Assembly (NCBI GenBank): GCA_963745235.1
Contig: CAVUXE010000037.1
Coordinates: 1-64,000 of the forward strand
Length of the DNA stretch: 64,000 nucleotides
Reading direction: 5' to 3'
Source of the DNA: an uncultured Spirochaetota bacterium
GTDB taxonomy: Bacteria; Spirochaetota; Spirochaetia; SZUA-6; Fen-1364
Both the position numbers and the translations under genes were made by a program. Shown piece after piece: positions 2,197 to 41,960 of this stretch. Numbering within the stretch: position 1 is the stretch's first letter; each line of letters begins with the position of its first letter. Below the pieces are notes generated by a model. The model searched no databases. It saw only the letters and a list, made by a program, of their open reading frames with translations, and was not told the DNA's origin.

Positions 2197-2223
2197 CGGA
2201 GAGGGCTATACTAGCCTCAGAAC

Positions 2224-5226: not shown

Positions 5227-5272
5227 TTGAAGTCCGGCATTCAATGTAGCCGGGCCGGCCTCCCCCGCCAAG

Positions 5273-6912: not shown

Positions 6913-6916
6913 GCGC

Positions 6917-7615: not shown

Positions 7616-7686
7616 GCGTGGATCCTATCATCAACGGGCAGGCGCGGGCAGGTCCCCGCCCGCGTGGACCATGCCCGCGGTTTCAG

Positions 7687-8466
7687 TCATTCGGCGACGA
7701 TGATTCTGGTCTGGTACTGCTTGATAAACTCCAAGGACGAAAGCCTCGTCTTCCCGTCCGTCACGATGACGTCAATCGACGGGAAATCAGCAAGGAAGAC
7801 CTGGCCGAGCCGCTGGAACTTCGTGTAGTCGGCAAGGATGACGACGCTCTGTGATCGCTCGATCATCATCCGCTTCGTATCCACCTCCGCGGCGCTTGAA
7901 TCCGTGAGCTTCTGCTGCTCGTCGATGCTGGTGCATGACATGAAGGCCTTGCTGGGATAGTAGTCCTGGGCAACCCGCTGCGGGATGGCGCCGGAGAAGG
8001 ACATGTTGCTTTCCTTGAGCTCTCCTCCCAGGCAAATGAACTGGAGATTGGGATTGCGCACCCGCACGGCCTCCAGGAGCAGCTTCAGCGAGTTGGTGAT
8101 GACGGTGACGCGGATGTTTCGGGCGATGGCGCGAAGGAGGTAGAGCGTGGTGGAGCTGTTGTCCATGAAAACGGTGTCACCATCCTGGATCAGGGTGGCG
8201 GCCTTTCGGCAGATGAGGATCTTCTCCTCCTGGCGCTGGACCTCCCGGAGGGCCACGGGCAGCTCGGCAGGCGACCGGGAGGCGGCCTGATCCATGACGG
8301 CGCCGCCGTGGGTCCGCCTCACGATGCCGTCCCTCTGCAGCTCGCGCAGGTCCCGCCGTATCGTTTCCCTGCACACATCGAATCTCTCGGAGAGCGAAGC
8401 CACGTCCGCCCTGCCCGCCCGCTCGAGAATGCCTGCAATCTCGGCTTTTCTTTCGAAGCCAAGCAT
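7687..8466 (-). CDS. DeoR/GlpR family transcriptional regulator
   Basis: ETIRRDLREL, RRTHGGA, FMDNSSTT, VITNS; start taken at MLGFERK. Confidence 0.93.
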   Translation of the reverse strand: MLGFERKAEIAGILERAGRADVASLSERFDVCRETIRRDLRELQRDGIVRRTHGGAVMDQAASRSPAELPVALREVQRQEEKILICRKAATLIQDGDTVFMDNSSTTLYLLRAIARNIRVTVITNSLKLLLEAVRVRNPNLQFICLGGELKESNMSFSGAIPQRVAQDYYPSKAFMSCTSIDEQQKLTDSSAAEVDTKRMMIERSQSVVILADYTKFQRLGQVFLADFPSIDVIVTDGKTRLSSLEFIKQYQTRIIVAE

Positions 8467-9071
8467 CAGATCATCTTCCCGAATATCCCGCACGCCGCGT
8501 CGCACTCGACGCGCTCCAGCATGCTGTAGGCCATGTAGATGTCGGGCCCGGAGACCACCACGCCATGCAGGGGGAGGATGCAGCCGATGGGCTTCTTTTC
8601 GGCAACGGCCCGGTGCTCCTCGAAGTAGCGATAGACGTTCTCCGACAGCTCTTTCGTGTACGCCTTGGTGTACGGGATGCAGCCCACGTCTCCTCTCCCG
8701 AGGGTCGCCTCGGAGACACTGGGGATCGGCTTGGCCTGGACAACGTACACCATGCACCAGAAGGGGTGGGCGTGGATCGTGCAGCCGATGGTGTCGAAGT
8801 TGCTGAGGATCAGCTGGTGCATGTAGCTCTCCCGGGAGAGCTTGCCGGTGCCTTCCAGCACCTTCATGTCCGCGTCCACCAGGAGCAGGTCACTGACATC
8901 CAGCTCGCAGTGCTTGCGCTCGGACATGAGCGAAGGGCTGACAAGCATCCGGCCCGGGGCCACCTTCACGGCAAAATTGCCCCCGGCGGCGTTGGTCAGC
9001 CTCCTGTCCCACATCATCTTTGCGACCTTGACCATCTCCCGGCGGGTCTCCATATACGACAAGTCGCTCAT
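8466..9071 (-). CDS. Class II aldolase/adducin (FucA/AraD-like) protein
   Basis: GGNFAVK, SRESYMH, IHAHP, ILPLHGVV zinc-binding His pattern. Confidence 0.9.
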   Translation of the reverse strand: MSDLSYMETRREMVKVAKMMWDRRLTNAAGGNFAVKVAPGRMLVSPSLMSERKHCELDVSDLLLVDADMKVLEGTGKLSRESYMHQLILSNFDTIGCTIHAHPFWCMVYVVQAKPIPSVSEATLGRGDVGCIPYTKAYTKELSENVYRYFEEHRAVAEKKPIGCILPLHGVVVSGPDIYMAYSMLERVECDAACGIFGKMI

Positions 9072-9090
9072 TGCGAACTGCTCCTTCGTC

Positions 9091-10026
9091 TCAGCCCAGC
9101 CTGCGAACTTCGCAGGCCGCCGCCAGCTCGTGTGCGCGAGCGGGGTCGAAGCCGACCGAAAGGGATGACTCGGCCGTGGCGGCCGATGCGGCGGTGGCAA
9201 CCCTGAGGGTCTCTTCCATGGATTTTCCCTGGCTGATCCCGTACACGAGACCTGCCAGGTAGCAGTCTCCGCAGCCGATGGTGTTGCGCACATTCACGCA
9301 AGGGGGGACCGCCTTGTACAGCCCCTGCGGGCACGAAAGGATGGAGCCCGCGCTCCCGAGGGAAACCGCGACAATCTCCACGCCGCGTATGTTCAGCGAC
9401 TCGAGAGCGCGGAGGATGTCTTCGTCGTTGCAGCCCACGTCCCTCCCGCAGAGAGAGGACAATTCGCGGAGGTTGGGCTTTATGAGAAACGGCACGCTCT
9501 GAATGCACCGCGCGAGCGCCGGGCCGCTCGTGTCCACAAAGACACGCAGTTTCCTGTCCCGCAGCTCGTCCATGATTCCGTTGTAGACAAAAGGGTCCGC
9601 GCAGTTGCCGGCGTCTCCTGAAAGGATGAGCCAGTCTCCGGGCTTGATTCCCGCCTTCAGTGATGAGACAAGCTCCGCAAGGTCCGCGCCTCCGAGGGGG
9701 ACCCCTTTTTCCGCCACGATGGTGCAATCGTTGCTGCGCTCCACCAGGAGGTAGTTTGTCCGGCTCTCGGCCCCGTTCCTGTGGAGAAAGGCCACCTCCA
9801 GACCGTAGTCTTCCAGGTAACCGATGATGCGCCTGCCGGCCTCTCCGTGGCAGATCCCGAAGGCGCGGCTCGTGATTCCCAGCAGCTTCAGGTTGATGGA
9901 GACGTGAGTCCCCTTGCCCCCAATGACCTCCGCGGTGCCTTCCGTGCGGTTGGTGTGGTTCTTCTCCAGCGAGTCGAGGTATATCACCTTGTCGATTGCC
10001 GGGTTCAGGGTCAGGGTGTTGATCAT
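9091..10026 (-). CDS. 1-phosphofructokinase-family hexose kinase
   Basis: TLNPAID, GGKGTHVS, IKPNLREL, NTIGCGD. Confidence 0.93.
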   Translation of the reverse strand: MINTLTLNPAIDKVIYLDSLEKNHTNRTEGTAEVIGGKGTHVSINLKLLGITSRAFGICHGEAGRRIIGYLEDYGLEVAFLHRNGAESRTNYLLVERSNDCTIVAEKGVPLGGADLAELVSSLKAGIKPGDWLILSGDAGNCADPFVYNGIMDELRDRKLRVFVDTSGPALARCIQSVPFLIKPNLRELSSLCGRDVGCNDEDILRALESLNIRGVEIVAVSLGSAGSILSCPQGLYKAVPPCVNVRNTIGCGDCYLAGLVYGISQGKSMEETLRVATAASAATAESSLSVGFDPARAHELAAACEVRRLG

Positions 10027-10054
10027 CTGAGGTCCCCGAGGCGCGAGGGGCGCA

Positions 10055-11047
10055 TCAGGTGAACCTCTCGTCGATGGCGAATGCCCGGGGCGCCGCGCCC
10101 GGCTCGAACATCATCACCTGCCTGAGGTTTGAAATCGCCTTGTCCAGGCCCTCTTCCACCGACATATAGGAGTCTTCGTGCTCGATGCTTGCCACCTCGT
10201 CGTAGCCGGAGGAGCGCAGCGCGCCGAAGATGTCCGCCCATTCCTTCAGGCCATGGCCGAAGCCGACCGTGCGGAACTGCCAGGCCCGTCCGTAGACCGT
10301 CGCAAAGCTCTGCATGTCGGTGAGCCCGAAATAGGAGACAAGAGAAGGATCCACCGCCGCGTCCTTGGCATGGAAATGGTACAGGCATCCCTCCCTGCCC
10401 AGGAAACGAGCGGCCTGGCATGGGTCTATTCCCTGCCACCACATGTGGCTCGGGTCGAGGTTGGCCCCGAGTGACTTGCTGCCCGTCTCCTTGCGCATGC
10501 GGATTGCGGTTGCCGGCGAGTGCACCGAGTACCCGCCGTGCATCTCCATGGCGATCCTGACCCCCTTCTCTTCGGCATACGCTCCCATCTCCTTCCAGTA
10601 GGGGACGAGCTTCTTCTCCCACTGCCAGGCAAGGACCTTCTGGAAGTCTTCGGGAAAAGGCGACACCGGCCAGTTGGGGTACTGCGAGTCTTCGCAATCG
10701 CCAGGGCACCCGGAGAATGTGACGATGCTCCGGACCCCCAACAGAGAAGCCAGGTCCACTGAGTCCTTGATGTCCTGGTGGTATGTGGCGGCGAGACGTC
10801 TCTGGGGATGAACCGGATTGCCGTGACAGCTCAGGCAGACAATCTCCATGTCCCTGCGGGAAAACTCGGCCTGGAAGGCGTCACGGGCGCGTTTGTCCGT
10901 GATGAGCTTCCCAGGGTCGCAGTGCTCCTTGCCGATGAAGCCGCCGGCTCCCACCTCCACGTGGCGGATGCCCTTTGCCCGGAAGATGTCCAGCACTTCG
11001 CCGAGGGGCTTGTTCTTGTAGAGAACCGAGAAAGCCGCGAGTTTCAT
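10055..11047 (-). CDS. Sugar phosphate isomerase/epimerase (xylose-isomerase-like TIM barrel)
   Basis: LSCHGNPVHP, AMEMHG, NLDPSH, HFHAKD, SIEHED. Confidence 0.9.
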   Translation of the reverse strand: MKLAAFSVLYKNKPLGEVLDIFRAKGIRHVEVGAGGFIGKEHCDPGKLITDKRARDAFQAEFSRRDMEIVCLSCHGNPVHPQRRLAATYHQDIKDSVDLASLLGVRSIVTFSGCPGDCEDSQYPNWPVSPFPEDFQKVLAWQWEKKLVPYWKEMGAYAEEKGVRIAMEMHGGYSVHSPATAIRMRKETGSKSLGANLDPSHMWWQGIDPCQAARFLGREGCLYHFHAKDAAVDPSLVSYFGLTDMQSFATVYGRAWQFRTVGFGHGLKEWADIFGALRSSGYDEVASIEHEDSYMSVEEGLDKAISNLRQVMMFEPGAAPRAFAIDERFT

Positions 11048-31856: not shown

Positions 31857-31930
31857 TGGGCCCACAGGGACTTGAACCCCGGACCAACGGATTATGAGTC
31901 CGCCGCTCTAACCAGCTGAGCTATGGGCCC
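31857..31930 (-). tRNA. tRNA with CAT anticodon, most likely tRNA-Ile2 (lysidine type)
   Basis: GGGCCCATAGCTCAG...GACTCATAATC...GGTTCAAGTCC...TGGGCCCA cloverleaf; fully paired acceptor stem, so not initiator. Confidence 0.9.
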
Positions 31931-32000
31931 CGGGGCTATACCGTAACGAAATGCCAGCAAGAGTCAAGCACAGACAGGATCTCCCTGGATCAAAAGGTGA

Positions 32001-32030
32001 CGGCAAATCACGGCAAATCTCGGCAAATCC
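32001..32030. repeat. Three tandem 10-bp repeats CGGCAAATC(A/T/C)
   Basis: cggcaaatca cggcaaatct cggcaaatcc read directly. Confidence 0.9.
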
Positions 32031-32037
32031 GTCAAAG

Positions 32038-32066
32038 TTGACAGCCCCTGAGGCAACGGCTATCCT
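32038..32066 (+). promoter_or_regulatory. Sigma70 promoter of tRNA-Leu
   Basis: TTGACA-17bp-TATCCT, 9 bp before the tRNA. Confidence 0.85.
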
Positions 32067-32075
32067 GCCTGCGAA

Positions 32076-32160
32076 GCCGGCGTGATGAAATGGCAGACAT
32101 GCCAGACTCAAAATCTGGTGGGTGGCAACGCCCGTGTCGGTTCAAGTCCGACCGCCGGCA
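32076..32160 (+). tRNA. tRNA-Leu(CAA)
   Basis: GCCGGCG acceptor, CCAGA-CTCAAAA-TCTGG anticodon arm, long variable arm, GGTTCAAGTCC. Confidence 0.95.
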
Positions 32161-32377
32161 GAGAGTTCGTGCAGATGCAAGGAATTGGCGCACCACCCTT
32201 CCATGAACGGGCGGAAGGATGGCCCACTCGCCCCTATCCATACCAGTTTCCCTACCAGTTGAGCGGCCTTGTTCCTTCCAAACTGCGAGCCTCGGAAGGG
32301 ACTATGCTCGTGACGGCGAGAAGGGTTCGGCATTGCGTCCTCCCGTGTAGGAAGCCGCCAATCCGGCTCGATTCAGC

Positions 32378-33118
32378 TCACGCAACCCTCGTGCTGCTTC
32401 GCGGGGCGTCGTGGGACTTCTCGATCCTTCGCGCAACGAGGAGCGTGGCCTCGTAGAGGATCACAAGCGGAAACATGACGGTCAGGGGCGCGACGATGGG
32501 ATCGCTCACGGGCGTGATGATCTCGGCAAAGGCAAAGAGTATGAAGTACGCGACCCGGCGTCTCTTTTTCAGGACAAAGACGCTCAGTACGTGCAGCCGA
32601 ACAAGGATGATGAGAAGGCACGGGAGCTGAAAAGAGATGCCGCAGGAGAGAAGGAAAAACGTCACGAAGGAGATGTAGTCATCGGCGGAGGGCATGTACT
32701 CGATCCTCGGAGGGAAAAGCTGCACGAGGACCTTGATCATGCTCCAGAGGAGGTAGTAGCCGAAACAGGTCCCTGCCGCGAACAGGACCACCGAAGCCAC
32801 GAGCAACGGCATGACGAGACTTCTCTCGGAGCGCCGCAGCCCGGGGGACACGAAACCGATGAGCTGATGCGCCCAGAGCGGGGTGGTGAGGATGATCCCC
32901 CCGTACAAGGCGAGGCGCAGCTTTATCATCAACCCGTCGAGAAGCCTGAAAGCTCTCAGGTGCAGACCGCCCGAGGGAAGAAGCAGGACGGTCAGGGCGG
33001 AATCGGCGAAAAAGTATGCAACAACGGTTCCCGCAAACACGGCGACGGCGGCAACGAGGAGGCGCCGCCGCAATTCCGACAGGTGATCGGAAAAACTCAT
33101 GAAAGCGTTGCCCGTCAT
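32378..33118 (-). CDS. tatC: Twin-arginine translocase subunit TatC
   Basis: MSFSDHLSELRRRL, FVSPGL...E, GISFQLP, AEIITP..DP, ILYE. Confidence 0.93.
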   Translation of the reverse strand: MTGNAFMSFSDHLSELRRRLLVAAVAVFAGTVVAYFFADSALTVLLLPSGGLHLRAFRLLDGLMIKLRLALYGGIILTTPLWAHQLIGFVSPGLRRSERSLVMPLLVASVVLFAAGTCFGYYLLWSMIKVLVQLFPPRIEYMPSADDYISFVTFFLLSCGISFQLPCLLIILVRLHVLSVFVLKKRRRVAYFILFAFAEIITPVSDPIVAPLTVMFPLVILYEATLLVARRIEKSHDAPRSSTRVA

Positions 33119-33136
33119 GCAATCCTCACAGCGGGT

Positions 33137-33469
33137 CTATGAGAGCCTGGCTCCACACTGGCCGCAGAATCGGGACTCCTGCGGGTTCAAAGCGTTGCAC
33201 ACGCCGCATGACCGCCCTGCGGCAGAAACGTTGTGCGGCGCGGGAGCCTGCGCTTGCCGAGACGCGGCGTCATCTTGAGAGCGTCTCTCCTGCACGCCGC
33301 TGCCTCCGTTCTCATCCCTGAACTGCGCACTCATTTCCTGGGCGCCTTTGCGGAACTCCCTGACCGACTTCCCAAGCCAGTGACCAAGTTGGGGAAGTCG
33401 CTTTGGTCCGAATATCACGAGCGCGACGATTCCGATGAAAAGCAGATGAATGGGCTGAAGTCCGAACAT
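33137..33469 (-). CDS. tatA: TatA/E subunit with C-terminal zinc ribbon
   Basis: VALVIFGPKRLPQLG...LGKSVREFRKG; CGVC...SRFCGQCG. Confidence 0.9.
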   Translation of the reverse strand: MFGLQPIHLLFIGIVALVIFGPKRLPQLGHWLGKSVREFRKGAQEMSAQFRDENGGSGVQERRSQDDAASRQAQAPAPHNVSAAGRSCGVCNALNPQESRFCGQCGARLS

Positions 33470-33491
33470 GGTTCCTCCTATTCGTAACGGG

Positions 33492-33797
33492 CTACTCTCG
33501 TATGCGATAGACAGCGCACGAATGGAAATCGATCTCCCACTTGAAGCCAGGAATCCTCTCCCACAGGTATTTTCGGCTCATCGTGTCCCACCACTGCTGG
33601 AAGCGGCCAGTGTTATCGGCCATGTCACGTACCAATCTCTCGTACAGCGCACTCGCCTGCAGGTCGTTCTCGGGAAGACCGACCAGTGACCGGAAGAGCT
33701 CCGCGAGGCCGTTCTTGCGCTCGAAGAGCATGCGGATCTCGTCCCGTTCCACGCCCTCAACCGCGCCCACGCTCACGCGGTCGTTTTCAGTTGCCAT
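33492..33797 (-). CDS. CXXX-repeat peptide modification system accessory protein (TIGR04116-like)
   Basis: ERDEIRMLFERKNGL, LYERLVRDM, FQQWWD.M..KY.W, WEIDF.SC; match recalled from the family, plus gene context. Confidence 0.8.
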   Translation of the reverse strand: MATENDRVSVGAVEGVERDEIRMLFERKNGLAELFRSLVGLPENDLQASALYERLVRDMADNTGRFQQWWDTMSRKYLWERIPGFKWEIDFHSCAVYRIRE

Positions 33798-34890
33798 TGC
33801 GGTCCTCCTTCTTCAACTGCGCGAGGATCTCTTCCTGCACCGCGAGGATCCGCGCCAGCGTCTGCTCAATGCGCCCGTTTGTGCCCCCCTGCTGAGGCGA
33901 CCCGCGATCCTGGCTCCTGCGAGCGCCGATTTTCGACTGCGCCTGCATGAGCGCATCGAACGGATCGAGGTAGGCGAGCCGGGGGATGGGTTCCGTCCGT
34001 GCAAGGAAAGTCACGTCGCCGAGCAGATCGCGGAGAATGCTGGATGCATTCCTCTCGTGGTGCGAGGCGATGCACTGCTGGTGCGATGGCGCGTTGATCT
34101 CGAGGGTCGTGCGCTTGTTCAGGTAAAGACAGCGCTTGCAATGGTACGCATCGCAGGCTGAACAGATGGCGGCGTGGGCGATGTCCAGGAGTTCGGCGTT
34201 CGGCACGCGGAGGCCCTGGCGAAGATTTCCCACGGGCTGGTTCGGCTCATCGTGCAGGAATCCGGGACAGACATACAGGTTTCCTTCAGGCCCGACGGTC
34301 ACGTGGTCGATCCCCGCCTGGCAGTTGCGCATCGAGGTGAGAAAGATCCTGTCGGTCAGGAAGCCGAGCTCGATGTCGCGCCGCCGCCTCAGCGTCTCGG
34401 CCACGCAATGTGCGAGGTCCTGGAGAGACCGCCAATAGAGCTCGAGCGCCGCATCGCCTGGCGTCTCCAGGTCCAGGAGACAAAGGTTTATCCGCCGGCA
34501 CGTTCCAATCAGCGGGAGCAATACCGCCGGCAGCTCGGCGATACGGCCGATGGGGAAGCGCACGATGATATTGGCATCCCGCACACGGGCTGGCAACGCA
34601 GTCTTTTCGAGGTCTTCGGGCCCGACGATCACCGTCGATGCTGGATGCGCATCCGCCGCGGAAAGCGGGACGATGTCGGCATGGCTGACGCTCTGCATGA
34701 CCGGCGCAAAGGACGCAGGAGGTTCCGTCTCTCCGTATTGGAAGTTCACCACCAGCCCCCGCGCCTGGGCGAACGCAACGGCCTCCCGAAGGGTTTCCAA
34801 CGGGATGGGACGCGGCGCGGGTCTTTCAGGCTTCGCGTAGTAGCAGAAGGAAGGCGCAGACTCGTCGATCGGCACGAGGAGGAACTTCAT
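33787..34890 (-). CDS. CXXX-repeat peptide maturase (TIGR04119-like; SPASM domain, no CxxxCxxC)
   Basis: PSFCYY N-terminus; CQAG..HVTVGPEGNLYVCP, ICSACDAYHCKRC, PSHQQC. Confidence 0.8.
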   Translation of the reverse strand: MKFLLVPIDESAPSFCYYAKPERPAPRPIPLETLREAVAFAQARGLVVNFQYGETEPPASFAPVMQSVSHADIVPLSAADAHPASTVIVGPEDLEKTALPARVRDANIIVRFPIGRIAELPAVLLPLIGTCRRINLCLLDLETPGDAALELYWRSLQDLAHCVAETLRRRRDIELGFLTDRIFLTSMRNCQAGIDHVTVGPEGNLYVCPGFLHDEPNQPVGNLRQGLRVPNAELLDIAHAAICSACDAYHCKRCLYLNKRTTLEINAPSHQQCIASHHERNASSILRDLLGDVTFLARTEPIPRLAYLDPFDALMQAQSKIGARRSQDRGSPQQGGTNGRIEQTLARILAVQEEILAQLKKEDRNGN

Positions 34891-36105
34891 GGCGATGCCC
34901 CCTCGGGGGCTGCGGCAGCGGGCAGTTCTTCACCTACCGGCGGAAGCTTGGCGAACATCTTCCAGTAGTAGCGGTTGGCGCGCACCCGCGCCTTGTGCAT
35001 CGCGCAGATGAAGACGGCCCTCTGATAGATCGTCTCGGTGTCCGCCGCATCGTAGTTCAAGCCCTGGCACCAGGCACATCCGCTGGCAACCTCGCAGGCG
35101 AGGCATTTCTGCGGGCTCTGGCGCATCCGGTCGAGCGTGAGGAACGGACGAAGCCTGTTCTGATCGATCCCCTCGAAGCAGCTTCCCACGGTCCGCGCCG
35201 GGTGTCGCGCGAGCGAGTAGGGTGCGAACCTGATGCAGGGGTAGAAGAGGCCGGCGTGGTCGACGGCGAGCATCTTCCCTGCCCCGCACCAGTTCTGGGT
35301 GTCCTGCTCCGCATCGAGGGGGAGGCCGATCGAATCCGAGAAGAAGGTCGCGGCCACCGTGTTGAAGAGCCCTTTCGCGAGGACGTGGTCTGCAAGCGAT
35401 TTGAGCTGCTCCTCGAGAACCGCATCATCGCCTTCGACCCAGACGTTCTCGAAAACAGTATTGATGAACACGTTCGGTATCCCAAGGTCCCAGAGGTGCA
35501 CGACGCTCTCGAACACGAACGGCAGGTCCTCGTGACCCACCGTGACCTTCGTGCCTGCGCCCGGAAACTGCTCCAGCCACCGGGGGACGTTGCGCACGAC
35601 GTCGCCATAAGATCCCCTCCCATCGGGATACCGGCGCTGCAGGTCGTGCTTGCGCTGCGTGCCATCCAGGCTTAGCCCGATGCTGAGGTGGGCCCTGTTC
35701 TTTGCGATGAAATCCTGGACGCGCGGGTGGTCGTAGAGGATGCCGTTGGTCGAAAGGCTGAACCGGTAGCTGTCGAACCAGGGGTGGTTCTCCTCGTACA
35801 TACGCCGCTTGATGTAGTCGCACACCGCATCGATCAGCTCGATCTCGAGCAGGGGTTCGCCGCCAATGAAAGCCCATTCGACGCTGGACTCGGGAAAGAA
35901 GCGTTGGTTGGCGAGCACGTAGTCCACCGTGCGCCGCGCGATGTCGAAGCTCATGGGGTGCGCGCGGTTCTTGCCCGGACAGGTAACAGTAGCAGCACCG
36001 CAGCTGGCAGTCCTCCGTTACGATGAAGGAGATATTCTTTGCACTGCCTTCGCCCCAGCTCCGTGGCTTCTGCCCGAAAGTGTAATGGCTACTCGGAATA
36101 GACAT
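34887..36105 (-). CDS. Radical SAM peptide maturase, CXXX-repeat target family (TIGR04115-like), frameshift at ~35975
   Basis: ISFIVTEDCQLRCCYCYL in ORF 35425..36105 joins FIGGEPLLE, STNG, NWCGAG, YPCIRF, CLACEVASGCAWC. Confidence 0.88.
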
Positions 36106-36120
36106 GAGAAGGGGAACCTC

Positions 36121-36336
36121 TCAGTGTGCGCAGACCATGGTGCACGTCGTTGAGCAACTCCCCGTGCAGGACGAGCTGCAGCCACCGGTGCAGGTCCCCT
36201 CGCAGTTGTCCTTGCAGGCGCTGGTGCACGTCCCGCCGCATCCTCCTGGCGGCGAGCAACTCGAGAGGCTGAGACCGAGCAGGGCGAACGAGGTGAGGAC
36301 GGTTGCAGCGCTTCTCAAGAAATGACGGCGGTCCAT
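36121..36336 (-). CDS. CXXX-repeat RiPP precursor, 71 aa, with Tat motif and lipobox
   Basis: MDRRHFLRS, hydrophobic core, LSSC27, then Cys at 33, 37, 41, 45, 49, 53, 57, 61, 65 and 69. Confidence 0.85.
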   Translation of the reverse strand: MDRRHFLRSAATVLTSFALLGLSLSSCSPPGGCGGTCTSACKDNCEGTCTGGCSSSCTGSCSTTCTMVCAH

Positions 36337-37458
36337 TTGATCGCTCAGGGCGGGAAGGCCGCCGTCTCCGGTCGTGACGAGCTCGTCATCGACGACGCCT
36401 CTCGCCGCTGGGCTGAGCCTCGACGGGGAATGGCGTCTCTCGGCCGCATCCTGATACTCGTGCCAGGCGCAGCAGTAGGGATCAGGGGCGTTGATGTTGC
36501 CTGTAAAATAGAGGGCGCGCGCCCGGCACCCTCCGCCCGACACCGCGAGGTGCGGGCAGTCGGCACAGCGGGTGTTCAGGGCGAAGACCTTCTTCCTTGC
36601 CAGGTGCTGCGCCCAGAGACTTGCAAGCGGTTGTGCGCGAATGCTGCCTTCAAGGAAATCGTCTCCCAGGAAAGCGCACGGGCTCATGCGGCCGTCGGCC
36701 CTGATGCCGAGCTTGGTATCGGGACAACCGAACCGCTGCGTTTCATTTCCCGCGCCGCATTGGAGCGAAAGGTCGGGAGATCGGCCTATGGCGGCGATCA
36801 TCTGCCAGGCTTCGCCCGCCATCGATGGCGGGATGAGAAGTGAGGAGTTCTCGAGCGCCCTGCCCGCGGGCTTGACGAGCCCGACGACGAGATTGCGTAC
36901 TCCAATGCTTTTCAGGAACTCGGGCAGGCGCGAGATCTCCTGCATGTTCTCGCGGTGAACGGAATACTGAACGACGAGGTCTCGGATATCCGCCGACTGC
37001 AGAAGCCTGATTCCTCGCAGGGCCGCAGCGAAGGCGCCCTGGCTTCGAAGGGAATCATGGGTCTCCGGGGTCACACCATCAAGGCTGACTTTCACCCGCA
37101 CCTGCTCCTGCGCCAGGCAAGCAGCTGTCTCGGCCGTGACGAGGGATCCCGTGGTCAGGAGCGTTACCGCGAGGCTTTTCGCTCGCGCGCGGGAGACGAA
37201 ATGCCGCAACCCGCTTCGCATCATCGGCTCGCCGCCTGAGAAGGTCACAGCTGGCACGCCCATGTCGCTCACCTGATCAATGAGCGAGAGCACTTCCCCG
37301 TCGGAGAGCTCCTGTTCCATGGGCTTCCCCGCGGAGCAATAGCAGTGCCTGCATTGATTGGAACACCTGTTCGTCAGGTCGATGTAGACGCGTGATGGAA
37401 GAAGCGGTGAGAAGGTCTTTCTTTCAGAGCCCATTCCGACATAGAGACTTCTTGCCAT
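36121..37458 (-). CDS. Radical SAM/SPASM enzyme whose frame continues into the Cys-rich peptide
   Basis: TNRCSNQCRHCYC, FSGGEP, VSLDG, CADC....GGGCRARA, PDPYC, then a linker and MDRRHFL... Confidence 0.88.
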   Translation of the reverse strand: MARSLYVGMGSERKTFSPLLPSRVYIDLTNRCSNQCRHCYCSAGKPMEQELSDGEVLSLIDQVSDMGVPAVTFSGGEPMMRSGLRHFVSRARAKSLAVTLLTTGSLVTAETAACLAQEQVRVKVSLDGVTPETHDSLRSQGAFAAALRGIRLLQSADIRDLVVQYSVHRENMQEISRLPEFLKSIGVRNLVVGLVKPAGRALENSSLLIPPSMAGEAWQMIAAIGRSPDLSLQCGAGNETQRFGCPDTKLGIRADGRMSPCAFLGDDFLEGSIRAQPLASLWAQHLARKKVFALNTRCADCPHLAVSGGGCRARALYFTGNINAPDPYCCAWHEYQDAAERRHSPSRLSPAARGVVDDELVTTGDGGLPALSDQMDRRHFLRSAATVLTSFALLGLSLSSCSPPGGCGGTCTSACKDNCEGTCTGGCSSSCTGSCSTTCTMVCAH

Positions 37459-37522
37459 TGGAACCCCCCTCGCACACTTTTTTTGGTCTTCAGATCCTGG
37501 CGCGGCTGAGAAAGGTTTTCAC

Positions 37523-37551
37523 ATGATAGCTCTACAGGCCGATGGATGCAA
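37523..37551 (-). promoter_or_regulatory. Putative sigma70 promoter of the island operon
   Basis: TTGCAT-17bp-TATCAT on the minus strand; GAGGGGG RBS before ATG 37458. Confidence 0.6.
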
Positions 37552-37728
37552 GAAGAATATCTCAAGAGCTCAAAAAACTGCAAAATGAAACTCGGTATAC
37601 AAAGCCGCCATACCAGAATCCATACCTATTGGATGAGCCACCGTAGCTGGGGTAGCGGAAATAGCTTCGAGAGCCTTGAAATAGCTCGAAAACGGGCCTC
37701 ATAGCGCGTGTAGGAAGGATGGACGCGC

Positions 37729-37784
37729 CTCAAAATCTGGTGGGTGGCAACGCCCGTGTCGGTTCAAGTCCGACCGCCGGCAGA
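37729..37784 (+). repeat. attR: duplicated 3' half of tRNA-Leu
   Basis: Identical to 32107-32162. Confidence 0.95.
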
Positions 37785-37829
37785 CAATTCCATCCTTGAT
37801 CGGTTTTGCACTCTGGGCGCGATTGCGGG

Positions 37830-38140
37830 GCACGCTGCTGCGAGCCCACGAATGCACCGTATCCGCTGCCTGCCGCGCCTCCTTGGCGTCTGATAGGGTC
37901 AACTCCAGTTCGTTATCGGGGCAGCGGACTTCAACGGCGTACGGATTCAAGATCTGGTCGGCCGCTCGCACGGCAGAAGGGACTCCTTCCGCCCGGTCCG
38001 CGCTGACTTCTTCCATGAGCGCCAGGTTGGCCGCTCTTTCCATTCCCGGCGTGGCTGCGCAAGGCCGAAAACGACCTTCTTTCTCAGCCGGCATGAACTT
38101 CTTTGCCCTGAGAAATGACCGCCATCTCTGCCAGCAACCG
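37830..38140. pseudogene. HEPN-domain remnant
   Basis: Minus strand LNPYAVEVRCPD...DAKEARQAA; plus strand WLRKAENDLL...CQQ. Confidence 0.5.
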
Positions 38141-38179
38141 CACGCCGACGCGCCGGTAGGCGCGAAGCGTGCCCTGGAC

Positions 38180-38850
38180 CGATGATAGTAGCGCACGAGG
38201 CTCGAAAGGCTCTGGCGGAACGCTATTGGCTTTCCCCCCTCCGCCTCTGCGTTGATCTGCGGAATGGTCTCAGCACCCTCCAGCAGTGGCCAATAGTGTT
38301 GCCGCCACTTCTCGCTGACTTCCAGGAGCGGGACACTGACCGACCCGATGGGCTCCCAGCGAGCGGAGGCCCACGAAGTCATGGCGATATCGCAAAGCGC
38401 GCGGATCAAGGCCAGCTTGTACGTAGCCACCTTCCGATCAGCGTTGATGATGCTTTCCACCCGATCGATGGCGCGCGTGCTCACTCCGGAGGACTGGAAG
38501 TACAGTGTTGCCCAGAGAAAGCCCCTCCCAGCGGAGTCAGCGGATTTCCATTCATTCTCAAGCTCAAACCCAAGCCGTTCGAAAAGGAGCCGAACCTGGG
38601 CAACGGACCGGATGATCATGAGCCTGCCCGCCTCATCACGCTGACCGCCGGGCCTGATGTCACCCCGCTCGACTGGCATAGAGATCAGGAGCTTCCCGCC
38701 CTTCTTGAGGCGCTGGCGAAGCTCGAACGCGACGTCGAAGAGCTCTCCGTCCGGGATGTGCATGATAACGCAGAGAGGAGAACACCGTCATACTCGTGTC
38801 GGATATCCGAGGGCAGGCCTCCAGGCAGGAAGCCATCAGAGAGCTTGCCC
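38180..38850 (-). pseudogene. Internal fragment of a class I methyltransferase/HNH-type fusion gene
   Basis: YDGVLLSA..MHIP, LKKGGKLLIS, DRK.ATYKLALIRAL, HYWPL; both ends missing. Confidence 0.6.
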
Positions 38851-39774
38851 AGATGGAACTTCATACTTACCGGCAGCTCCGCGCGTCAACTCAGGCGAGG
38901 CAGCGCCAATCTCCTTCCTGGCCGAAGCATCGCACATACCCTGACTCCCGTCATGCAGGCAGAGTGCAGGCCGAGTACTCTGCTGCCGGCCGCCCTGCCG
39001 GCTGAGCCGAGATTTCCCCAGAGGAGCCTGGAAGACTACTTGCTGTTCGGAAGCCTCCCTGGGCTGTATTCAGAAGGACGGGACGCCTGGGCTGAGACGC
39101 TGGCAACGTGGGCCGATCTTTACATCGAGAATGAGGTCCGGCAGGAAAACATCGTCAGGGACATGGGAGCTTTCAGCCGGTTTATCGAGCTTGCGGCGCT
39201 TGAGTCCGGCCGTATCGTCAACTACACCAAGATGGCCTCCGCCGTGGGCGTGGCCGTGAACACGCTCCGCAATTTCTTCCAAGTCCTTGAGGACACCTTC
39301 CTCGGAATACGGGTACCGCCATTCACCGAAACACGCCGCCGTGTCGCCCTGGCACCCCGGTTCGTTCTCTTCGACATAGGAGTTCGCCATGCTCTTGCCG
39401 GTCTTCGCATCTCAGAGGACCTCATTCGCATTGGGGCGGAGGAGCTCTTCGAACAATGGGTCATCTCCGAGCTCTGCCACCGCGCCACTGCCCTGGGGCC
39501 TGGATACTCCGTCAGCTCCTGGCGCACCTCTGGCGGGGCAGAGGTGGACGCCATCCTGCGAACTCCCGAGGAGGTGATTCCCGTGGAGATCAAATGGACC
39601 GACAGCCCGCGGCCATCGGACGCGCGGCACGTGGAGACCTTTCTCGATCTCCACTCGGGGGCGAATCGAGGCTTTGTGGTGTGCCGCACTCCCTCACGCC
39701 AGGCGCTTACCGACCGGGTCACTGCGCTGCCGTGGAATGAGTTCTATAGCTACAGCTTGTCGGGTAATTGCTAG
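38850..39774 (+). pseudogene. 5'-truncated AAA_14/DUF4143 ATPase
   Basis: FILTGSS..L.GR, FGSLP, LFDIG, EVDAI, PVEIK; no Walker A; 3' end runs into the IS. Confidence 0.75.
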
Positions 39775-40158
39775 CCTGCTGCACCCTGCTGGGCATGGCG
39801 ACGCCTGACCGGCACCTTGCGCGTTGGTGGCGGCAACTCTTGCAGCTGACGCTCGGTTGCCTCCAGCGAAATGCGCTCCATTTCGGCGACGATGCGATCA
39901 AGTTCCTTGCCGGCAGCGATCCACCCTTCTAGCAACTTGGCTTGTTGAGCTGACAGATTAACCGTGACGGTCCTGCCGTCGAGTTTGCGGGTCCACTGGT
40001 AATACGGACCGTGCAAACGGGGGGGTGAGGCTTTGCAGGCGCAGACGGACTTGCCGCAGGTCATCATGCGCTTGAGCAGGGTGCCGCGGCGGAAGAAGCC
40101 GATGTGGCTCAGGGCGAGTTGAAGCTGCCCGGTAGTCTGATGGAAGGTCGGTTTTCAT
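39771..40158 (-). CDS. DUF6788-like IS-associated protein, frameshift at ~40129
   Basis: RRGTL...TCGK..CAC.....HGPYYQWTRKLDGRTVT. Confidence 0.7.
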
Positions 40159-40169
40159 GGCGATGTATA

Positions 40170-40205
40170 TTGACAGAGATTAGTCCCCAGTTATACTACT
40201 GGGGA
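40170..40205 (+). promoter_or_regulatory. Transposase promoter with an inverted repeat around the -10 box
   Basis: TTGACA-16bp-TATACT; TCCCCAGT-tatact-ACTGGGGA. Confidence 0.7.
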
Positions 40206-40342
40206 AGTGTCTCCCGTCAATATCCTCCCGGTTCGACTTTGCCTCCCGATCCTCTCTTCGGCCCTGTGTCTGCTCCTTGTGCTCGGCGGCTTCAGTACAC
40301 GCCCTTGCGTTATCCCAACCACTTCAGCGGAGGTTCCCCCCT

Positions 40343-41713
40343 ATGCCGCGTCAGCCCGATCTATTGCCCAGATCCAAGAGTCCAACCATCCCTGTGGCCG
40401 ACAACCATCGCCTCGTCCAGATCGCCGACACCCTCGATTGGGAGGAGCTGCAACAGCGCGCCCAACAGATCCGTCTGGCAAAGTTGAAGAACGCTGCAGG
40501 CCAGCCGCCGCATTTGCGCGCCACCCTCGGCGCTATGCTGTTCATGGCTACACGCAAGCTCACCTATCGGGAGGCGGAAGACCTCATCCAATACTACGCC
40601 CCGGCGCGTTACCTGTGCGGGCTGACCGAGACGAGCTGGACGCCGGACTTCACCACGATCCAAGACTTCACCGAATTGATGGGAGAGCAGGGGATCAATC
40701 TCATCAATCAGTACGTGGTGCACCTGGCGGTGAAGCAAAAGCTGGCAGATCCCAGGACCCTGGTGGCCGACACCACAGCGCAGGAAGCGGCAATCCCCTA
40801 TCCCAACGAGATGGGACTTATGTCCGCCTTCCTGCGCTCGGCGGCTGCCGCAGGGCGGAAGGTTGGCCGAGGGCTGAAGGGGTTTTTGCAACAGACGGCG
40901 AGTCAATTCCAGGCGGCCGGGCAGAAAGCTCGAGAGTACCGCCTGTTTGCCAAGACCAAGGAGAGCAAGGATCGGGTGATGACTCAGATGCTCACCATCG
41001 TCGAGAAGCTCAACGCGCATTTGGGCAAGGCGCTGGGCGAAGCTGCCGCACAGAGAACAAAGCTACGCAAGTACGCCATCGTGGCCAAGAGCAAGCTGGT
41101 GCAATTGCACGAAACGATGAGCAAATTGCTGCCGCAGATCCGCTACTGGATTCGCTCAGGCTATGTGGCCAGCGGCAAGATCATCAGCCTGCATATCCCG
41201 CAACTCTACAGTATCGTGCGCGGCAAAGTAGGCAAATCGGTGGAGTTCGGACTGAGCTGGGGCATTACGCGTCTGGCCGGTGGGTACCTGCTGGCCACGC
41301 TGGCCAAGGATCGCCGCGAGTTGGTGGACACGAAGTTTGCAGTGCGAGCAGTCAAGGACCACCTCGCGCTCTTTGGCAAAGCGCCGCTGGCATATGCCTA
41401 CGATCGTGGTGGATACAGCGCGCAGAACCTCTCCGCCTTGAAGAAGTTGGGGGTCAAGGAGGTGGGACTGGCCCCCCGTGGACGTACACAGTGGTCGGTA
41501 AGCAGACCGGTGCGCGACCGGCTGGTCAGAGAGCGGGCTTTGGTAGAGGCGGGAATCGGCTCCATCAAAAGTCCGCGCTATGGGTTCAACCGCCCGGCAG
41601 CCCGCTCGGTGACTATGATGGGCGCCTGCGGTCAGCGTGCAGTGCTGGGGTTCAACGCCAACAAACTGGTCCGAGAGCTTGCGCGCCGCAAGACAATGGT
41701 GCTGAGCGGTTGA
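40343..41713 (+). CDS. DDE transposase, IS5-like
   Basis: LDWEEL, PDFTTI, VADTT, IVRGKVGKSVEFG, YDRGG, RALVEAGIG. Confidence 0.88.
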   Translation: MPRQPDLLPRSKSPTIPVADNHRLVQIADTLDWEELQQRAQQIRLAKLKNAAGQPPHLRATLGAMLFMATRKLTYREAEDLIQYYAPARYLCGLTETSWTPDFTTIQDFTELMGEQGINLINQYVVHLAVKQKLADPRTLVADTTAQEAAIPYPNEMGLMSAFLRSAAAAGRKVGRGLKGFLQQTASQFQAAGQKAREYRLFAKTKESKDRVMTQMLTIVEKLNAHLGKALGEAAAQRTKLRKYAIVAKSKLVQLHETMSKLLPQIRYWIRSGYVASGKIISLHIPQLYSIVRGKVGKSVEFGLSWGITRLAGGYLLATLAKDRRELVDTKFAVRAVKDHLALFGKAPLAYAYDRGGYSAQNLSALKKLGVKEVGLAPRGRTQWSVSRPVRDRLVRERALVEAGIGSIKSPRYGFNRPAARSVTMMGACGQRAVLGFNANKLVRELARRKTMVLSG

Positions 41714-41905
41714 AAATCGATCTAAGAATCGATCATCAGACACAAAGACAAGTAGCAGCAAAGGGAAACGATTCCTACCGCACCGACAGCGCCTCTGAGT
41801 TGACGATGAAGGGTCACAGCGGACCGCCTACCGAGCAAGCATCGTGATAGCCGACGACGTACTGCATGCCACGCGAATCGCCGCCAAGAATTACCCGACA
41901 AGCTG

Positions 41906-41960
41906 TAGCTACGCAGCACCGCGTTGATCCTCGTCTGGCACCCGGCGCGGGGAGCGCGAT
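41906..41960 (-). pseudogene. BrnA-type antitoxin C-terminal remnant
   Basis: GCQTRINAVLRSY resembles the BrnA GYQTRINAVLR motif. Confidence 0.55.

Follow-up and report, generated by a model that had tools for sequence, protein, structure and literature searches.

Ribosomal peptide natural products, as far as is known, usually lose their leader and then leave the cell almost exclusively by way of ABC or peptidase-ABC transporters. The locus described here, a CXXX-repeat peptide cassette that carries tatA and tatC, raises the question of whether such a peptide could be exported by the Tat pathway and whether the linked TatA-TatC pair is dedicated to that task. The cassette lies in a window of 64,000 nucleotides (the whole stretch of DNA analyzed) from an uncultured Spirochaetota bacterium. 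It is probably a genuine CXXX-repeat radical SAM peptide-maturation system, extended by a lineage-specific radical SAM/SPASM enzyme and TatA-TatC, carried on a 5.6-kb islet at tRNA-Leu(CAA) and working along the lines proposed below.

Gene content and organization of the cassette

The features of the islet are collected in Table 1. A preliminary description had read the cassette as one minus-strand operon with tight junctions; gene content, order and junctions were borne out, with the corrections that the radical SAM/SPASM enzyme and the peptide share one frame and that the TIGR04115 gene is broken in frame. The operon starts at 37458 rather than at 37551, as first given. The TIGR04115 start follows the peptide stop by 15 nt, TIGR04115 and TIGR04119 overlap by 4 nt and TIGR04119 and TIGR04116 by 11 nt, and spacings of 22 and 18 nt separate TIGR04116 from tatA and tatA from tatC, respectively. 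SD-like motifs were observed before six starts, including AGGAGG 4-5 nt ahead of the tatA ATG; no such motif precedes the ATG of the precursor at 36336. A pattern scan gave no terminator-like sites between TIGR04116, tatA and tatC, and the genes are presumably co-transcribed. Across the region, the promoter and terminator scan returned one promoter-like site, on the tRNA side, and three terminator-like sites, fewer than in shuffled sequences. Sites like the weak hairpin at the precursor stop were likewise not more numerous than in shuffles. No peptidase, ABC exporter or other coding content was found between the flanking repeats, in agreement with the earlier reading of a cluster lacking both functions.

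Table 1. Coordinates of the features of the islet and its borders in the window
Feature	Position	Strand	Remarks
CXXX cassette operon	37458-32378	minus	radical SAM/SPASM + CXXX peptide, TIGR04115, TIGR04119, TIGR04116, tatA, tatC
Upstream non-coding stretch, 270 nt	37459..37728	minus	presumed promoter region; no consensus promoter, no ORF with a family match
445-codon open frame: radical SAM/SPASM enzyme A, spacer, precursor	36121..37458	minus	no internal stop
Precursor part, 71 aa	36121..36336	minus	MDRRHFLR, hydrophobic region, lipobox LSSC, 10 consecutive CXXX units
Weak hairpin over precursor stop and TIGR04115 start codon	36105..36123	minus	pattern scan: 7 base pairs, of which 3 are G-C
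TIGR04115 radical SAM maturase for CXXX-repeat targets	34887..36105	minus	518.5 bits, cut-off 350; +1 frame break near 35974-35978
TIGR04119 SPASM-only CXXX repeat peptide maturase, 367 aa	33787..34890	minus	195.3 bits, cut-off 150; residues 116-315
TIGR04116 CXXX repeat peptide modification system protein, 101 aa	33492..33797	minus	78.8 bits, cut-off 50
tatA, 110 aa, C-terminal zinc-ribbon tail	33137..33469	minus	TIGR01411 55.7 bits, cut-off 53.9; PF02416 51.6 bits
tatC, 246 aa	32378..33118	minus	TIGR00945 153.5 bits, cut-off 132.7; PF00902 173.6 bits
tRNA-Leu(CAA), intact, left edge of islet	32076..32160	plus	ARAGORN
Left 62-nt direct repeat (3' part of tRNA-Leu + 8 nt)	32107..32168	plus	repeat search
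Right 62-nt direct repeat (partial tRNA-Leu copy)	37729..37790	plus	repeat search

The islet at tRNA-Leu(CAA)

The two 62-nt repeats are 97% identical and lie 5622 nt apart; their 40-nt core has two copies in the window where 0 would be expected. In one X4 contig, 32106 is linked to 37729, as at an island-less joint, although the evidence is weak (side 31, overlap 56). Among 20 genomes of the same genus, none carried a TIGR04115 match over cut-off. A search of 24 relatives with the left flank found neither the islet nor the right flank, with only the tRNA-Met/tRNA-Leu part in common; the loci of nine relatives share nothing but the tRNA part. The ancestral empty site cannot be rebuilt from relatives. 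The integrase profile PF00589 had 50 matches in the genome, none of them on contig C37, and hence none in or beside the islet. The islet looks portable, as a small mobile-looking unit inserted at tRNA-Leu(CAA) in a peat or soil bacterium. Its suggested portability into hosts lacking Tat fared unevenly: the tRNA repeats, the X4 joint, the lack of a TIGR04115 match over cut-off in the 20 congeners and the detection of tatC in only 7 of 20 genomes of the genus speak for it, but the present host has a tat locus of its own on contig C79.

The CXXX maturases

The family assignments of the three maturation proteins, as given in the preliminary description, were confirmed by HMM scores that all exceed the cut-offs (Table 1). 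In the case of TIGR04115, profile positions 1-30, which include the CQLRCCYC motif, are encoded in one frame and positions 30-359 in the neighboring one. No CxxxCxxC motif could be read in the sequence of the TIGR04119 protein. The TIGR04116 protein was modeled by AlphaFold (pLDDT 89.1) as a helical hairpin with a small sheet. Foldseek returned no PDB entry at E ≤ 0.001, a wide VIA-align search gave only generic helical hairpins (Z ≤ 7.0), and matches in the ESM Atlas were confined to clusters of the protein's own family. These PDB structure searches gave no support for an RRE (PqqD-like) or for a NapD-like signal-peptide chaperone. A predicted complex of the TIGR04116 protein with the precursor, run without controls, scored 0.00.

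The precursor and its leader

Enzyme A occupies residues ~20-334 of the 445-codon frame and is AhbD/NirJ/PqqE-like, with HMM scores below all cut-offs. The peptide at the other end of this frame had been described as a separate twin-arginine Cys-rich product; the MDRRHFLR motif, the hydrophobic stretch and the 10 CXXX units stand, whereas the separate open reading frame does not. MDRRHFLR, the uncharged stretch and LSSC were read directly from the translation, for comparison with the twin-arginine pattern of S/T-R-R-x-F-L-K, h-region and cleavage site. The precursor scored 44.5-49.4 bits against the target family TIGR04117, at best just under the cut-off of 50, and 13.1 bits against Pfam TAT_signal (cut-off 22.7); the putative Tat leader was called from its motif.

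Leaders of the same type are conserved in related loci. Among 114 open segments that are rich in CXXX and lie ahead of radical SAM genes, an RR motif was present in 101, across 79 of 83 loci, and 7 of the 13 segments lacking it are truncated by a contig end. To judge from these sequences, twin-arginine leaders are near-universal in the CXXX-repeat peptide family. A lipobox at the first Cys was found in 29 of 96 complete non-identical precursors. It reads LSSC in the window, LSGC in the metagenome relatives P0001 and P0002, and LASC in locus L026. As a candidate lipoprotein, the window precursor was judged by the pattern [LVI][ASTVI][GAS]C closing the h-region and by the presence of genes for Lgt and LspA; it qualifies, the host genome having lspA (87.6 bits) and lgt (234.6 bits). 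The lipobox predicts a product that is lipid-anchored and not released from the cell, which alters the earlier proposal that the modified peptide leaves through Tat.

Linkage of tatA and tatC to CXXX clusters

The TatA and TatC of the islet are a minimal pair, as first recognized: both HMMs score over cut-off and the genes are adjacent. The zinc-ribbon tail of the islet TatA (Zn_Ribbon_1 23.9, slightly under the cut-off of 25) is also found on the native tatA of C79 and of genome G010. Islet TatC is 62.5-66.5% identical to TatC of the same genus; named relatives at 64-65% identity are labeled Rectinemataceae or Spirochaetia, and those at 56-59% Anaerolineales or Anaerolineaceae. P0002 and a TatC, P0123 (69% identical), each come from one JGI contig 9017 nt in length, possibly the same one. 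The host genome was also inspected for other tat genes, and C79 was found to carry a second tatA-tatC pair, of the type native to the genus. A crude regular-expression scan for other Tat substrates in the host, too coarse for a count, returned 10 candidates, mostly unconvincing, and missed a DUF362 protein on C79.

Co-located tatAC genes were then sought in CXXX clusters by a wider survey of metagenome contigs and genome searches, in which a locus was counted as informative where enough downstream sequence was present to judge the tat neighbors. In 24 of 40 non-redundant informative loci (29 of 48 before de-duplication), tatA and tatC directly follow TIGR04116; 2 of the 40 have tatA only and 14 have neither. 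Given these 14 clusters without adjacent tatAC, a linked translocase is not required. RR leaders occur in 22 of the 24 clusters with adjacent tatAC and in 12 of the 14 without. Genome G032, from the host's order, has the same gene order including tatA-tatC. Among 251 sampled Bacteroidales genomes, the cassette was found in 8 and tatC in 216. Two tatC copies are present in 4 of the 8 genomes with the cassette and in 9 of the 243 without it, a comparison between related genomes that does not amount to a formal test. A TatC tree of Bacteroidales places 34 of the 36 linked copies in one group, apart from the second or sole unlinked TatC of cassette-bearing genomes (SH-aLRT 88). Linkage of tatAC to the cassette is seen in at least three separate TatC lineages, namely Bacteroidales, the host genus and the group of G032.

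Alternative readings

The claim that the island has a Tat system of its own was upheld in part, the RR leaders and the linkage in 24 of 40 loci being in its favor, and the second, native-type locus on C79 and a TatC phylogeny that across phyla tracks host taxonomy and not the cassette being against it. These latter findings bear on a reading that we consider rather unlikely, in which tatA-tatC is the lineage's ordinary, general-purpose Tat machinery and stands next to Tat substrates without being devoted to them; any Tat system would then serve for the peptide, and co-regulation or chance hitch-hiking on the islet would account for the linkage. Consistent with this, islet TatC falls within the clade of the host genus (100/100) and the linked TatC of G032 among order-level TatCs, the islet TatA carries the tail typical of the genus, tatC is far more widespread than the cassette in the sampled Bacteroidales, and RR leaders persist in most clusters without adjacent tatAC. 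In G032 (92% complete) and G043, moreover, the linked tatC is the sole copy found in the genome, such that "dedicated" cannot be distinguished there from "only Tat". Recurrence of the linkage in separate TatC lineages argues the other way, as do the enrichment of a second tatC in cassette-bearing Bacteroidales, related as these genomes are, and the islet copy itself, which sits on a long branch (0.77) and is only 50-55% identical to the C79 TatC.

The frames of the first two maturation genes open two further alternatives. The 445-codon frame would, if a true enzyme-substrate fusion, encode an enzyme whose C-terminal tail is its own substrate, set behind an internal Tat signal and lipobox, with the tail alone threaded through TatAC and cut by LspA and the enzyme staying behind after a single use; this is possible, albeit doubtful. 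P0001 and P0002, 54-55% identical to the window's frame, show the same enzyme-precursor build with no stop between the parts, and in all three sequences a spacer of 44 residues leads from the SPASM "PYCC" to the Met, aligned without gaps though only ~20% identical (own count). The internal ATG also lacks the SD-like motif of the six other starts, and no other precursor gene exists on the islet. By contrast, all three sequences retain the Met directly ahead of DRR, as they should if it is a start codon, and none of the 79 related loci with a precursor-bearing open segment (83 scanned) has a long in-frame N-terminal extension on it, nor does any of the 83 encode a close homologue of enzyme A. 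Moreover, frame changes in contigs of runs X1 and X2 cut the enzyme part at codon 223 and leave the peptide part unaltered. Tat signals are usually N-terminal; internal ones occur in actinobacterial Rieske proteins. The same frame changes enter into a reading that seems improbable to us, that of a decaying, non-functional remnant from a tRNA hotspot, with its integrase lost and frameshifts accumulating. The +1 break of TIGR04115 in the window would fit this, as would the changes in the gene for enzyme A, of -1 at 36715 (X1, X2 and X3), +11 after 36855 (X1 and X2) and -1 at 37354 (X3), of which the X1/X2 pair gives an open reading frame of 223 codons, and the lack of an integrase match on C37. 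However, an assembly error is the likeliest source of the TIGR04115 break: in this indel-prone assembly rpoB and rpoC are each in three frame pieces, and both runs that cover 35977 (X1 and X3, from two other studies) have one base fewer there and give TIGR04115 in frame. The five remaining genes span the full length of their profiles, and enzyme A of the window can be aligned with its relatives across 425 residues without a change of frame. Some islet copies may be decaying (in TIGR04115 in the window, in the enzyme A gene in X1-X3), but with the TIGR04115 frame break corrected the islet is probably complete.

Comparison with known systems

The islet has all three components of the CXXX system of NCBIfam/TIGRFAMs (TIGR04115, TIGR04119 and TIGR04116; targets TIGR04114, TIGR04117 and TIGR04118) in the usual order of radical SAM enzyme, maturase and accessory protein. 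It differs in the added radical SAM/SPASM enzyme in frame with the precursor and in being flanked by tRNA sequence. Literature searches, run under other terms and on articles without their supplementary files, returned, among the articles listed, no account of a Tat leader or of tatAC linkage for CXXX peptides, and nothing on a CXXX repeat with radical SAM or on Tat with a radical SAM RiPP precursor. For TIGR04115, and for twin-arginine with SPASM, the matches in these articles were unrelated. In the pertinent excerpts of PMC10288494 and PMC9055067, "CXXX" stands only for the CxxxCxxC cluster motif.

The next-best family of the TIGR04115 protein was PapB (NF047865), at 162.4 bits; this is under the cut-off of 340, and the protein is not a member. 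PapB is a radical SAM/SPASM enzyme that acts on regularly spaced Cys residues. PapB/freyrasin and CteB-type ranthipeptide systems have leader peptides, protease/ABC export and Cys-X3-Asp partners, whereas the leader on the islet is a putative Tat signal. The match to QhpC/QhpD (TIGR03906) was weak (89.9 bits, far under the cut-off of 453). In that system a small Cys-containing polypeptide destined for the periplasm receives its thioether cross-links from a radical SAM/SPASM enzyme while still in the cytoplasm; quinohemoprotein amine dehydrogenase export uses a dedicated peptidase and a transporter of the ABC type, and what is made is a subunit of an enzyme. The Bacillus subtilis phoD-tatAd-tatCd locus has a minimal TatA-TatC pair that is specialized for the substrate encoded next to it, in a genome with another TatAC pair. 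The islet resembles it in carrying such a pair beside a putative substrate and in the second pair of its host, but the substrate there is a folded enzyme and no mobile islet is involved, whereas here it is a radical SAM-associated ribosomal peptide. Borosin-type OphMA combines a methyltransferase and its core peptide in one polypeptide. If the fusion reading of the frame, which is known from sequence, were right, the islet would likewise encode enzyme and core as a single chain, with the differences that the enzyme is a radical SAM protein and that a putative Tat signal lies between enzyme and core, where OphMA has no export signal.

Proposed route of maturation and export

In the route that we propose, iron-sulfur and SAM enzymes would modify the Cys-rich core of 10 CXXX units in the cytoplasm. 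What is known of PapB, CteB and QhpD-type enzymes suggests, by analogy, that a ladder of small thioether rings would be the likely result. Given that such a rigid product could not unfold, it would be exported in folded form by means of its twin-arginine leader and the TatC and TatA of the islet. The lipobox Cys would then be lipidated and the leader cleaved there by the host Lgt and LspA, processing that would account for the absence of a peptidase from the islet and would also explain protease-free CXXX clusters. The end product would be a cross-linked lipopeptide of ~45 residues on the outer surface of the cytoplasmic membrane or beyond it. Extended to the whole family, the proposal becomes tentative: CXXX-repeat peptides may form a RiPP class with a Tat-signal leader, often with a lipobox, whose maturases would have gained neighboring, lineage-specific TatA-TatC pairs on several occasions, and radical SAM cross-linked lipopeptides would then have an export route that depends on Tat. 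In the present case, enzyme and substrate would form one chain with an internal Tat signal, of which the translocase would draw out the modified tail alone, for release by LspA.

A Tat-signal leader, if true, would represent a different logic for moving a rigid cross-linked peptide across a membrane, and the CXXX-repeat system gains a testable localization, as a periplasmic or surface lipopeptide. The in-frame enzyme-precursor build, if real, would be a rare radical SAM-substrate fusion with an internal Tat signal. Being compact, the islet lends itself well to heterologous work. Metagenome contigs from gut and rumen often carry the cassette, and a minimal TatAC pair is found in the operon of most gut Bacteroidales-type loci as well as on this 5.6-kb islet of a soil bacterium; the CXXX product may play a part at the cell surface of Bacteroidales in the gut.

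A different radical SAM cluster was observed in G019, a genome of the same genus as the host, where a Tyr-rich precursor with a Tat-lipobox leader is encoded beside tatC and tatA. This hints that Tat in the genus serves such peptides more generally.

Gene Content and Order of the CXXX-repeat Islet

The CXXX-repeat peptide cassette with its tatA and tatC genes (the islet) comprises six open frames on the minus strand, which encode seven functional parts. Comparison with NCBIfam placed each of the three maturation families named in the preliminary description (TIGR04115, TIGR04119 and TIGR04116) above its cut-off, and Pfam concurred on the islet proteins (Radical_SAM, TatA_B_E and TatC). The peptide stop lies 15 nt from the TIGR04115 start, the TIGR04115/TIGR04119 and TIGR04119/TIGR04116 genes overlap by 4 and 11 nt, respectively, and spacings of 22 and 18 nt separate TIGR04116 from tatA and tatA from tatC. 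The gene content, order and tight junctions claimed for the operon were thus borne out, as was the claimed absence of a peptidase and an ABC transporter, no gene for either being found within the block 37458-32378. The cassette is a member of a catalogued, uncharacterised CXXX-repeat system, with all the defining families tested represented.

Features of the islet, its borders and related loci (window positions unless a contig or locus is named)
Feature	Position	Strand	Match or remark
CXXX-repeat cassette	37458-32378	minus	Six open frames
rSAM/SPASM enzyme 'A', whole frame	37458-36121	minus	NCBIfam: AhbD/NirJ/PqqE-like, 106-141 bits, far under all cut-offs
Precursor part, Cys-rich tail	36336-36121	minus	TIGR04117 "Cys-Xaa-Xaa-Xaa repeat radical SAM target protein," 44.5-49.4 bits (cut-off 50)
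Radical SAM maturase		minus	TIGR04115 "radical SAM peptide maturase, CXXX-repeat target family," 518.5 bits (cut-off 350)
Second maturase, SPASM-only		minus	TIGR04119 "CXXX repeat peptide maturase," 195.3 bits (cut-off 150)
Modification system protein		minus	TIGR04116 "CXXX repeat peptide modification system protein," 78.8 bits (cut-off 50)
TatA	33137-33469	minus	TatA/E, 55.7 bits (cut-off 53.9)
TatC		minus	TatC, 153.5 bits (cut-off 132.7)
Direct repeat, 62 nt	32107-32168 and 37729-37790		97% identical, 5622 nt apart
tRNA-Met(CAT) and tRNA-Leu(CAA)	31857-32160	minus and plus	Back to back
Right flank of islet	37699-40067		Includes 354-aa ORF without family match, its end running into the tRNA repeat
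DUF4143/AAA_14 ATPase	38182-39774	plus	Right flank
DUF6788 protein	39771-40067	minus	Right flank
Insertion sequence	39747-41911		Perfect 23-nt inverted repeats
Transposase	40277-41713		ISNCY/IS5-like
rpoB and rpoC	C73:99187-106818		Outside window; each in three pieces, different frames
Second tat locus of host	C79:8382-9301 (L025 3380-4566)		tatA and tatC
rSAM cluster L135 (G019:C43)	1294-10359		Same-genus genome

The TIGR04116 protein has a confidently predicted fold, in which a small sheet accompanies a helical hairpin; no informative structural relative was found. The C terminus of the islet TatA gave a sub-threshold Pfam match to a zinc ribbon (23.9 bits against a cut-off of 25); such a C-terminal CxxC...CxxC tail is seen in TatA of the host genus, namely in the islet copy, in the copy on contig C79 of the source genome and in the same-genus genome G010.

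Enzyme 'A' and the Precursor Share One Reading Frame

The first rSAM/SPASM enzyme ('A') and the Cys-rich peptide had been described as separate genes. Both parts are present, but they lie in a single uninterrupted frame of 445 codons rather than in two. The peptide part begins with an ATG at 36336 (MDRRHFLRSAATVLTSFALLGLSLSSC...) and continues into ten CXXX units. When 5.8 billion proteins were searched with this frame, 126 matches reached E 1e-10 or better, the best 120 of which were evaluated. The closest among the matches listed, P0001 (447 aa) and P0002 (463 aa), share 54-55% identity with the query over 93-97% of its length and have the same build as the window protein: enzyme, spacer, MDRR(E/D)FLRS...LSLSGC and CXXX tail. 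The next 47 matches (P0003-P0049) are 35-51% identical at 64-77% query coverage and mostly 330-380 aa long; the four sequences of such length that were read (P0003, P0004, P0012 and P0018) end shortly after the SPASM domain. Of the 83 related loci scanned, 79 have a precursor-bearing open segment, and in none of these was a long in-frame extension of it seen; no close homologue of 'A' was found in any of the 83.

The precursor may be translated from its own ATG or may arise as a tail on enzyme 'A'. Synthesis as a fusion is favoured by the spacer that runs from the SPASM "PYCC" to the Met, which is 44 residues long and gap-free in all three fused sequences (alignment A5: window, P0001 and P0002), at a counted identity of only about 20%, and by the lack of a Shine-Dalgarno-like motif before the internal ATG, where the other six operon starts have G-rich ones. 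The conserved Met before DRR, however, argues for a separate start, as do contigs from the metagenome runs X1 and X2, in which two changes, a 1-nt loss at 36715 and an 11-nt near-tandem insert after 36855, truncate 'A' at codon 223 and the peptide part is unaltered. The base at 36715 is also missing in run X3, and run X4 has the window's form; the X3 contig lacks one base at 37354, inside the CxxxCxxC motif.

Frame Breaks and Borders of the Islet

The TIGR04115 gene is split by a +1 frame break in a short C/G run near 35974-35978. In Logan contigs of X1 and X3, from two other studies, one base at 35977 is absent and the TIGR04115 frame is restored; the X2 and X4 contigs end in the 35977 region. 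The source assembly is a metagenome-assembled genome of 104 contigs (85.7% complete), and the fragmentation of rpoB and rpoC on its contig C73 indicates that it is indel-prone, with indels in essential genes at a rate of about one per 2 kb, so its frame breaks are not to be taken as pseudogenes. Given the rpoB and rpoC breaks and the in-frame X1 and X3 contigs, the TIGR04115 break is read as an assembly error or strain variant rather than as a dead gene.

The two copies of the direct repeat, which consists of the 3' part of tRNA-Leu(CAA) plus 8 nt, bracket exactly the cassette genes. One X4 contig, rated weak, joins 32106 to 37729 (side 31, overlap 56, likeness threshold 90), giving an island-less tRNA-Leu beside the same right flank. 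TIGR04115 exceeded its cut-off in 2 of the 41 genomes searched, the source genome and G032 of the same order, and in 0 of the 20 same-genus genomes. No tyrosine integrase was found on the islet's contig. In nine relatives, the common part of the left flank is the tRNA only, and the window stretch is present in peat and soil metagenome runs from at least three studies.

The tRNA-Met/tRNA-Leu pair is kept in same-genus genomes, and the gap between the two genes is ∼2.7 kb in G006, G015 and apparently also G007 and G011, which marks this site as a hotspot. The right flank is a mobile or defence-type neighbourhood that is not common to the relatives; an insertion sequence lies at 39747-41911.

Leaders and tatAC Linkage in Related Loci

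Of the 83 related loci, 79 came from metagenome contigs, three from species genomes and one from G032; an 80th metagenome locus, L102, was excluded, its rSAM frame being cut short by the end of the contig. The metagenome loci were the best 80 of 356 confirmed matches, a choice biased towards close relatives, and most of the related loci look like gut or rumen Bacteroidales. CXXX-rich open segments were present 5' of the rSAM gene in 79 of the 83 loci (114 segments). An RR-x-hydrophobic-hydrophobic motif, usually SRR(E/Q/D)FFK, occurred in 101 of the 114; seven of the 13 motif-less segments were cut by a contig end, and the remainder were fragments. Among 96 complete non-identical precursors, 29 had a lipobox at the first Cys past the hydrophobic stretch, one of which (L091) is probably false.

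Clustering of the rSAM proteins at 90% identity gave 67 clusters, 40 of which were informative, with at least 2700 nt downstream. Adjacent tatAC, a co-location for which the preliminary description had proposed a survey, proved recurrent: tatA and tatC directly followed the TIGR04116 gene in 24 of the 40 clusters and tatA alone in two (L021 and L075), and neither was adjacent in 14, including L093 and L105, with tatAC ∼9 kb upstream. The RR motif was found in 22/24 clusters with adjacent tatAC and in 12/14 without. In the most similar loci, L028, L029, L045 and L096 (environmental; rSAM 57-64% identical to that of the window), no tatAC was found within 6-10 kb. Given 24 of 40 clusters linked and the nearest environmental loci unlinked, cassette-tatAC linkage is common but lineage-dependent.

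None of the papers that the literature searches brought up dealt with a Tat-signal leader as a CXXX-family trait or with recurrent tatAC linkage. This linkage and the family-wide leader, a Tat signal that often has a lipobox, go beyond the catalogue, as do the packaging on a 5.6-kb tRNA islet and the in-frame enzyme-precursor arrangement.

Relationships of the Islet TatC

In a careful-method TatC tree across phyla (61 rows; twelve duplicate fetches and two short C79 fragments omitted), the islet TatC and five TatCs of the same genus fell together in a clade with 100/100 support, the islet copy having a long branch (0.77). The linked TatC of G032 grouped with order-level TatCs, and all Bacteroidales-type TatCs formed a separate 100/100 clade. 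By BLASTP, the islet TatC was 62.5-66.5% identical to the genus copies and 50-55% identical to two fragments of the host's second tatC on C79, which were themselves 71-79% identical to the G020 copy; named TatC relatives at 64-65% identity were labelled Rectinemataceae or Spirochaetia, which is a lead as to the host. The grouping of TatCs by host lineage in the tree indicates that TatC was not carried along with the cassette between phyla; in at least three lineages the cassette adjoins a tatAC of the lineage's own type.

The islet tatC is not the host's only one. The C79 locus, in which a tatA with a zinc-ribbon tail accompanies a frame-broken tatC, adjoins genes for a DUF362-like protein (Tat signal MTRREFLK) and a NapG/NapH-like polyferredoxin, is syntenic with G010 and is of the genus' native type; in view of the assembly quality, the frame breaks in this locus are probably errors as well. 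In the host genus, Tat is an accessory trait: tatC was found in 7 of the 20 same-genus genomes (G001-G020) and not in G002, G011, G015 and G017, which are 92-97% complete. The low frequency lends support to the suggestion that the islet would be portable into hosts lacking Tat.

In a quick-method tree of Bacteroidales TatCs (60 rows), 34 of 36 linked copies fell in one group (SH-aLRT 88, not starred), outside which were second copies of the cassette genomes G139, G234 and G280 and the sole, unlinked copies of G041 and G042, located away from the cassette. Linked and cassette-genome TatCs lay within a clade (support 99) outside which 14 TatCs from genomes without the cassette fell; as these 14 were high-scoring matches on long contigs and not a random pick, taxonomy may explain the outer split. 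In a set of 251 Bacteroidales genomes, each at least 90% complete, TIGR04115 was present in eight and tatC in 216. Two tatC copies occurred in 4/8 cassette-bearing and 9/243 other genomes, a contrast that is an indication and not a test, given that the sampled genomes are related. The claim of a dedicated Tat system is favoured by the recurrent linkage and the Bacteroidales group of linked copies; against it, G032 (92% complete) and G043 yielded no tatC other than the linked copy, and the sole tatC of G041 and G042 is remote from the cassette.

Proposed Working of the Islet

Since the enzymes depend on iron-sulfur clusters and SAM in the cytoplasm, modification must precede export. The next-best families for the TIGR04115 protein (PapB 162, CcpM 99, QhpD 90 and SCIFF 84 bits; all below cut-off) are all thioether-forming maturases, a resemblance suggesting that the chemistry is most likely a ladder of small thioether rings across the ten CXXX units. 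The cross-linked product could not be threaded unfolded and would leave folded through Tat, a pathway that exports folded substrates; a folded-only product would, with this property of Tat, give a reason for the family-wide twin-arginine leader. The window leader ends in L-S-S-C, and lgt and lspA are present in the genome, so signal peptidase II would remove the leader to give a lipid-anchored peptide of about 45 residues, which would account for an islet without a protease. The closest functional analogue is phoD-tatAd-tatCd of B. subtilis, likewise a minimal TatAC linked to its substrate.

The L135 locus holds an rSAM cluster of another kind, in which the Tat-lipobox leader theme recurs. Here, a Tyr/Ser-rich peptide of 110 aa, bearing TRRQAL and the lipobox LQSC, is followed by four ORFs with radical-SAM matches, two of which score 146-164 bits, under the cut-offs, against rSAM/SPASM maturase models of the DynA/DarE/anSME type, and then by tatC and tatA.
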